Shown here: positions 5,103-5,140 of the stretch, piece after piece | Numbering within the stretch: position 1 is the stretch's first letter | Layout: the number at the start of each line of letters is the position of its first letter | Assembly: GCF_003334315.1 (NCBI RefSeq) | Contig: NZ_QOWR01000080.1 | Source: Escherichia coli | GTDB taxonomy: Bacteria > Pseudomonadota > Gammaproteobacteria > Enterobacterales > Enterobacteriaceae | Length of the DNA stretch: 13,636 bases | Direction: 5' to 3' (one strand) | The notes under the pieces: model-generated | Databases searched by the model: none | The model's input: only the letters and a program-made list of their open reading frames with translations | What the model was told of the DNA's origin: nothing | Program-made: the position numbers and the translations under genes

Positions 5103-5140
5103 CCTTCGCACCTTCGCACCTTCGCACCTTCGCACCATCG
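5103..5140. repeat. Tandem 8-bp repeat (CCTTCGCA x4, followed by degenerate CCATCGGA)
   Basis: Directly visible at 5103-5140 in noncoding DNA. Confidence 0.85.

Follow-up and report, generated by a model that had tools for sequence, protein, structure and literature searches.

A copy-number-variable 8-bp tandem repeat at a probable fossil leuX attachment site between two genomic islands of Escherichia coli

The window, by which we mean the whole stretch of 13,636 nt analyzed here, is part of the E. coli chromosome. Over the 701 nt around its 8-bp tandem repeat it matches E. coli strain 13C1065T at 100% identity, and for positions 205-13562 RCAD0514 is collinear with it at 99.9% identity, as are about ten other chromosomes. 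Read along the plus strand, the region in genomes of the 13C1065T and RCAD0514 types starts with leuX (tRNA-Leu), a tyrosine integrase gene and genes for a DNA-phosphorothioate-dependent restriction enzyme, DUF932 and RadC. The middle part holds YeeU/CbtA, DUF4942, CopG/RelE and an HTH regulator, followed by the repeat, and the end comprises a restriction-enzyme fragment, an HNH endonuclease, nanS, nanM and the genes beyond. The integrase carries the domains Arm-DNA-bind_3, Phage_int_M and Phage_integrase. A P4-type tyrosine-integrase island, hereafter island 1, lies between the intact leuX and the repeat, and in 13C1065T and RCAD0514 leuX and the integrase gene stand at the end of island 1 opposite to the repeat, as expected if the repeat is a fossil attachment site. 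Because of this gene order and of the integrase at the leuX end, the repeat can be placed at the distal end of a CP4-like leuX island. The features on both sides of the repeat are given in table 1. leuX is a known integration hotspot (PMC7545054).

Table 1. Features in and around the 8-bp repeat, in coordinates of the window
Feature	Position	Strand	Description or basis
HTH-domain regulator gene	4194..4982	+	ORF; RefSeq WP_032161357.1 in matching genomes; last gene of island 1
Island 1 right arm (putative P arm of former attP)	4983..5096	+	AT-rich, island-specific
GTGCGGCC	5097..5104	+	Degenerate leuX T-stem 3' half (GTCCGGCC), by comparison with leuX
Tandem array	5105-5136	+	Four perfect TTCGCACC units: 5105-5112, 5113-5120, 5121-5128, 5129-5136
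Terminal A of tRNA CCA and putative fossil leuX trailer/terminator	5137..5175	+	Trailer identity with other strains
Putative P' arm remnant (integrase-upstream region) of older leuX island	5176..5325	+	Homology to live leuX-integrase intervals

Some further observations concern the surroundings of the repeat. The N-terminus of the HTH regulator gave only weak NCBIfam matches. A 17-bp unit present in 2.1 copies at 4120-4156, upstream of the start of this gene, could be an operator, and a 12-bp unit, TGAGTATACATG, occurs twice in tandem at 5017-5040, just past its stop codon; a motif resembling the latter (GAGTATA..GAGTATATATG) was seen upstream of the integrase in two other loci (L018 and L020). 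Between nanM and fimE, 13C1065T carries an IS1 where nanC and fimB would otherwise stand (12825-13522 in L001), and this strain is left with the FimE recombinase alone for the type 1 fimbrial switch; the window and RCAD0514 retain nanC, fimB and fimE. Among phage records, near and distant BLAST searches matched only one Salmonella contig, over 95 nt, and P4 itself showed no match to the window at the DNA level.

The original prediction described an 8-bp unit repeated four times next to a hairpin tailed by eight Ts, and both features were recovered. Tandem Repeats Finder reported a period of 8, 4.8 copies and 96% matches at 5103-5140 for CCTTCGCA, the phase in which the prediction had read the unit called TTCGCACC here. 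An exact count returned four perfect units, contiguous and arranged head-to-tail as in a VNTR, and no further copy of TTCGCACC outside the array when the whole window was scanned; 0.47 matches were expected by chance, and none of 200 shuffles reached four. The hairpin lies 3' of the array and consists of a stem-loop at 5151-5168 (seven pairs, loop of four) with its T8 run at 5166-5173. ARAGORN found no tRNA gene in the window and Rfam gave only sub-threshold chance matches in it. Whether treated as RNA or as DNA, the array folds no better than shuffled sequence, so that a special slippage-prone structure is unsupported. A CRISPR array, which needs unique spacers of similar length, was rejected: the units are contiguous and have no spacers, just as had been anticipated. 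The tract had also been called noncoding. No annotated gene covers the array in the RefSeq genomes listed, but the description falls short in one respect, as the tract is not featureless and is tRNA-derived.

The tRNA ancestry emerges from a comparison with leuX. The live gene ends in ...GGTTCGAGTCCGGCC-TTCGGCACC-A and has a strong terminator in its trailer; the junction in the window reads ...GCGGTGCGGCC-(TTCGCACC)x4-A-TCGGAACATCAATAGACGTCAACGGACG-T8-ATGACTGAAATCC. Set against CGGCC-TTCGGCACC-A of leuX, CGGCC-(TTCGCACC)n-A matches it minus one G. In other words, each unit corresponds to the 3' strand of the acceptor stem, the discriminator base and CC of leuX (TTCGGCACC), one G short. A fossil attachment site should present just such a match to the 3' portion of its target tRNA gene (CGGCC-TTCG-CACC-A), and the trailer is identical as well.

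The trailer links the right-hand DNA to leuX in living strains. In FORC_041, CP61_Sichuan and B1.H1.39, an intact leuX is directly followed by ATCGGAACATCAATAGACGTCAACGGACGTC-T7, identical to the trailer of the window, after which come TCAAC repeats spaced by 10 bp and then the start codon of an integrase. Altogether, 435 of 5,426 genomes have an intact leuX with a trailer of this kind. Moreover, positions 5137-5325 of the window show 84-85% identity to the interval between leuX and the integrase ATG in two live sites (L019 and L016), a homology that ends exactly where the integrase ATG should stand; from about 5326 on, the integrase gene is gone. Owing to the trailer identity and to this homology, we identify the DNA to the right of the repeat as the left-hand end of an older leuX island devoid of its integrase. 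Tandem Repeats Finder also detected TCAAC repeats spaced by 10 bp at 5218-5246 (TCAACCTAAG TCAACCTACA TCAACTTACT), and the series was also noted over 5195-5260. A TCAAC motif series precedes the integrase in all the live attL regions that we read (L017-L020 and the attL of 13C1065T), and the repeats in the window probably served the older island as arm-type sites for integrase binding.

A terminator-like site is predicted at the T8 hairpin (5151-5173). Its fold reaches -6.1 kcal/mol (z = -0.9), versus -15.7 kcal/mol (z = -5.5) for the terminator now behind leuX, and the hairpin appears to be the older island's copy of the leuX terminator, now weak and slightly decayed. The T run at 5166-5173 varies from T5 to T8 between alleles. 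In the live trailer a C precedes the T run (GACGTC-T7), and losing that C weakens the stem.

Further to the right comes the stretch 5330-5600, which about 40 plasmids of E. coli also carry (98.5% identity) and which therefore moves independently of leuX islands. It includes a 61-codon minus-strand ORF at 5340-5525 (WP_000066585.1) without a family match. At 5618-5767, on the minus strand, there is a 150-nt pseudogene fragment of a phosphorothioated-DNA-binding restriction endonuclease, the C-terminus of which is missing; a full-length gene of the same name adjoins the integrase, at the leuX end of island 1.

These comparisons indicate that the repeat is the junction of two tandem leuX islands, that is, a fossil attachment site. 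A recombination scar had been offered as one reading of the tract, which came close to the truth, given that a displaced leuX 3' end seems to lie at an island junction; the tRNA origin of the unit and of the T8 hairpin had been missed. The crossover between island 1 and the older DNA is located, on the same comparisons, apparently within 5097..5104 or just to the left.

The two flanks behave differently across the junctions compared, which comprised 17 fetched from genomes of E. coli, 83 in metagenome contigs and eight in IMG/VR contigs. The left flanks vary with the island and include CP4-like DNA with the HTH gene, P4-like DNA with a primase-helicase, fosA7.5 and the retron St85. In strains with other islands at the junction, the AT-rich arm found in the window is swapped for unrelated sequence, and a close relative of it occurs with a different right flank in a metagenome contig (L183). 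Among the 83 metagenome sites there are dozens of distinct AT-rich left arms, and the right flank belongs to a few families. The left flanks end in a match of variable length to the T-arm of the tRNA (GAGTCCGGCC, GTCCGGCC, TCCGGCC or GCGGCC). Such independent assortment, with an element-specific left side and a conserved right side, is again expected of a fossil attachment site.

Two or more perfect units were present in 25 of the 26 sites with the window-type right flank (two to four units each) versus none of the 57 sites on other right flanks, and the lone window-type exception has an imperfect 7-nt unit beside a single perfect one. Furthermore, one left arm was seen with a single unit on other right flanks and with three or four units on the window-type right flank. 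Since the same left arm differs in copy number according to the right flank, copy number travels with the older, right-hand DNA, and the crossover would lie to the left of the array. Williams in 2002 reportedly assigned a T-loop/T-stem sublocation to the integrase family to which that of island 1 belongs, in agreement with such a position. Because multi-unit arrays are almost confined to one right-flank lineage, the data suggest a single founding duplication, followed by slippage.

The array might instead have been made by the integrase, with aberrant or repeated recombination at leuX adding 8-nt units and the copy number recording cycles of integration and excision. The array does sit exactly at the attachment-site junction, its tRNA-end sequence is beside the putative crossover, and the site has been occupied by many different islands. 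Tyrosine recombinases, however, exchange strands conservatively, without gaining bases. In addition, copy number tracks the right flank instead of the incoming island, all 57 junctions on other right flanks have a single unit despite their 49 different left-hand islands, and three, four, five and seven units occur with the same island and identical flanks (see below). We therefore consider an origin by integrase action very unlikely.

A tRNA end with a single G (TTCGCACC instead of TTCGGCACC) was found in at least three diverged families of right flanks and with about 50 island arms (metagenome and IMG/VR loci L102-L192), and fossils keeping both Gs also exist (L185 and L186). The spread of the single-G end over diverged right flanks is not easily explained by one random deletion, a point that weighs against the history proposed below. 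It is possible that the G was lost repeatedly, or that a single loss was spread by recombination.

Copy number varies in the manner predicted for slipped-strand mispairing. The window and three other loci (L003, L004 and L005) have four, five, three and seven units, respectively, between flanks of 405 and 664 nt that show no substitution at all, that is, 1,069 nt of 100% identical flanking sequence, as is required of a VNTR. The seven-unit allele contains one TTCTCACC variant. A search of 5,426 complete genomes with a synthetic 12-unit query returned seven units in one genome, six units in six, five units in 13 and four units in at least 40. In an evenly spaced sample of the ranking, the commonest allele had three units, accounting for about half of the approximately 1,220 genomes that bear the site, and alleles of two units and of one unit also occurred. 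Among complete E. coli genomes, the site occurs in about 22%. Comparison among related genomes, which the original prediction had proposed, thus reveals a variable array with a total range of one to seven units, in which alleles always differ by whole units of 8 nt.

Clonal sets share one allele, as in the case of JX21CE33 (represented twice), of AHM9C61I and AHM9C68I, and of YZ22PE67/68/106. Because epidemiologically close genomes share copy number, the array seems to change at a moderate rate and is not hypermutable on laboratory timescales. The whole-unit pattern of the alleles is a signature of replication slippage, which we infer to act here at a moderate rate and without constraint. Some long-read assemblers are prone to miscount short tandem repeats, and the alleles could in principle be artefacts of assembly or sequencing. 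Against this, many laboratories contributed the more than 1,200 complete genomes with discrete whole-unit alleles, which also appear in the 83 metagenome contigs and in IMG/VR contigs, and the alleles are consistent within clonal sets. An artefactual origin can for practical purposes be set aside.

A scan of species-representative genomes for two or more units of 8 or 9 nt returned 81 loci, mostly with two 9-nt units and many in GC-rich genomes. As flanks of the leuX type appeared solely in one E. coli-like contig, the scan gives no sign that the array exists outside E. coli. That contig (CAKRJY010000038.1, 2.8 kb) has this E. coli junction with four units; it is binned in a metagenome-assembled genome of an 'uncultured Lachnospiraceae' and is most likely a mis-binned E. 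coli contig.

The distribution of the array also bears on the idea that the units are iterons bound by a protein, either as core-type integrase sites or as sites of a replication origin or of partition. Direct repeats placed between the genes of a mobile element, with 10-bp-spaced TCAAC repeats nearby, would suit such a role. Nevertheless, the units follow each other with a period of 8 bp and without spacers, their number ranges from one to seven without apparent constraint, and their sequence is accounted for by tRNA ancestry. The adjoining integrase gene is deleted, there is no adjacent initiator gene as a replication origin would have, and multi-copy arrays are absent from the species representatives except for the one E. 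coli-like contig. We regard a function as iterons as highly improbable.

A regulatory role of the array deserves similar scrutiny. It had been proposed that the repeat modulates the spacing of a promoter for the minus-strand ORFs, and in a broader form the array would be a contingency locus, in which copy number sets promoter spacing or switches the minus-strand ORFs or the HTH gene. As in phase-variable loci, the unit length is not divisible by three and the copy number is polymorphic, and a mechanically called ORF of 53 codons (5016-5177) passes through the array. The arrangement of the genes speaks against it. The HTH gene, on the plus strand, ends at 4982 and the 61-codon minus-strand ORF runs from 5525 to 5340, so that the two genes converge on the array and both stop short of it; the array is thus beyond the 3' end of the ORF that it was supposed to control. 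The promoter-spacing idea fails because the repeat is downstream of both neighbors. No promoter-like site spans the array; those predicted in 4900-5700 are all at other positions and are no more numerous than in shuffled sequence. The upstream half of the 53-codon ORF is specific to the island and gives way to unrelated DNA in other strains, so that the ORF is not conserved, and the array itself carries no annotation. The proposal is further countered by the persistence of the repeat beside many unrelated left-hand islands. The array is located neither between promoter elements nor in the 5' part of a conserved ORF, the positions in which contingency loci are found, and we give hardly any credence to such a role. 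We conclude from its position and sequence that the array probably has no regulatory function, and that the old terminator may at most still end the HTH transcript.

The locus can be compared with three groups of known systems. Internal attachment sites in tandem arrays, as mapped by Islander/TIGER (PMC7192596), similarly show a partial 3' end of the target tRNA at the junction of two elements, with a left side specific to one element and a right side that belongs to the older occupant. Unlike them, the fragment in the window has lost a base and had its last 8 nt amplified into a polymorphic array, and the older element is a remnant without an integrase. In PAI II-536, inserted at leuX, the island is bounded by 18-bp direct repeats, and truncated or imperfect distal repeats have been reported in leuX islands (PMC9686529). 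Island 1 resembles P4 and PAI II-536 in its leuX target and in its P4-type three-domain integrase, and some left-hand neighbors of the array have a P4-like primase-helicase, but island 1 is a small CP4-like toxin-antitoxin island. Pierson and Kahn are said to have described leuX as the target of the satellite phage P4 integrase in 1987. With bacterial VNTR/MLVA loci and simple-sequence contingency loci, the array shares perfect head-to-tail units, whole-unit polymorphism and clonal stability; in contrast to them, it lies outside genes and promoters, so no phase-variable phenotype is expected. The literature that we searched yielded no tandem amplification of a leuX distal repeat, and nothing relevant for the repeat sequence in all its phases, alone or with MLVA. 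The array is apparently an ordinary kind of feature that has remained undescribed.

In our view, the array is very probably a VNTR born inside a fossil attachment site and devoid of a regulatory role. According to the scenario that we propose, the older island would once have stood directly after leuX, supplying the tRNA 3' end and the terminator. A later island would then have entered leuX with its own tRNA 3' end, displacing the old copy to its far end, where it would have been left functionless. The released copy would have lost one G, and a single duplication of its last 8 nt would have followed, for which slippage between the CC dinucleotides on either side is the probable mechanism; thereafter the array may have grown and shrunk by replication slippage in whole 8-nt units. 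Because the array is to the right of the crossover, it stays linked to the older right-hand DNA throughout the turnover of islands on its left. Many islands may have come to stand beside one fossil array through excision followed by re-integration, through homologous replacement, or by inserting into the fossil site itself. The expected product of excision, a leuX body fused to the array, was found in none of the 5,426 genomes. Possibly, precise excision does not take place, or excisants with a dead leuX are selected against.

The latter possibility leads to a more speculative idea, namely that the decayed and amplified tRNA end works like a ratchet, keeping an island in place at leuX. We think it rather unlikely. 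With the crossover left of the array, precise excision would join the leuX body to a multi-unit tail with a single G and produce a dead tRNA. The loss of an island would be penalised, and the arrival of a new one, bringing a fresh 3' end, would be rewarded. If true, the ratchet would explain both the unrelated islands found beside one fossil array and the lack of leuX-array fusions among the genomes searched.

For the annotation of the region, an anonymous repeat becomes the precise boundary of two successive leuX insertions, and the T8 hairpin would be a retired tRNA terminator. The array may also be of use in typing, as an 8-bp length marker that stays constant within clones but differs from lineage to lineage. 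More generally, the locus may provide a small and clean example of the decay of a released tRNA fragment, in which a tandem repeat would have been born once and then slipped. Wider significance would come only through the idea that a broken fossil end makes island loss costly, in which case the array would be a by-product that reinforces the retention and turnover of islands at this hotspot.
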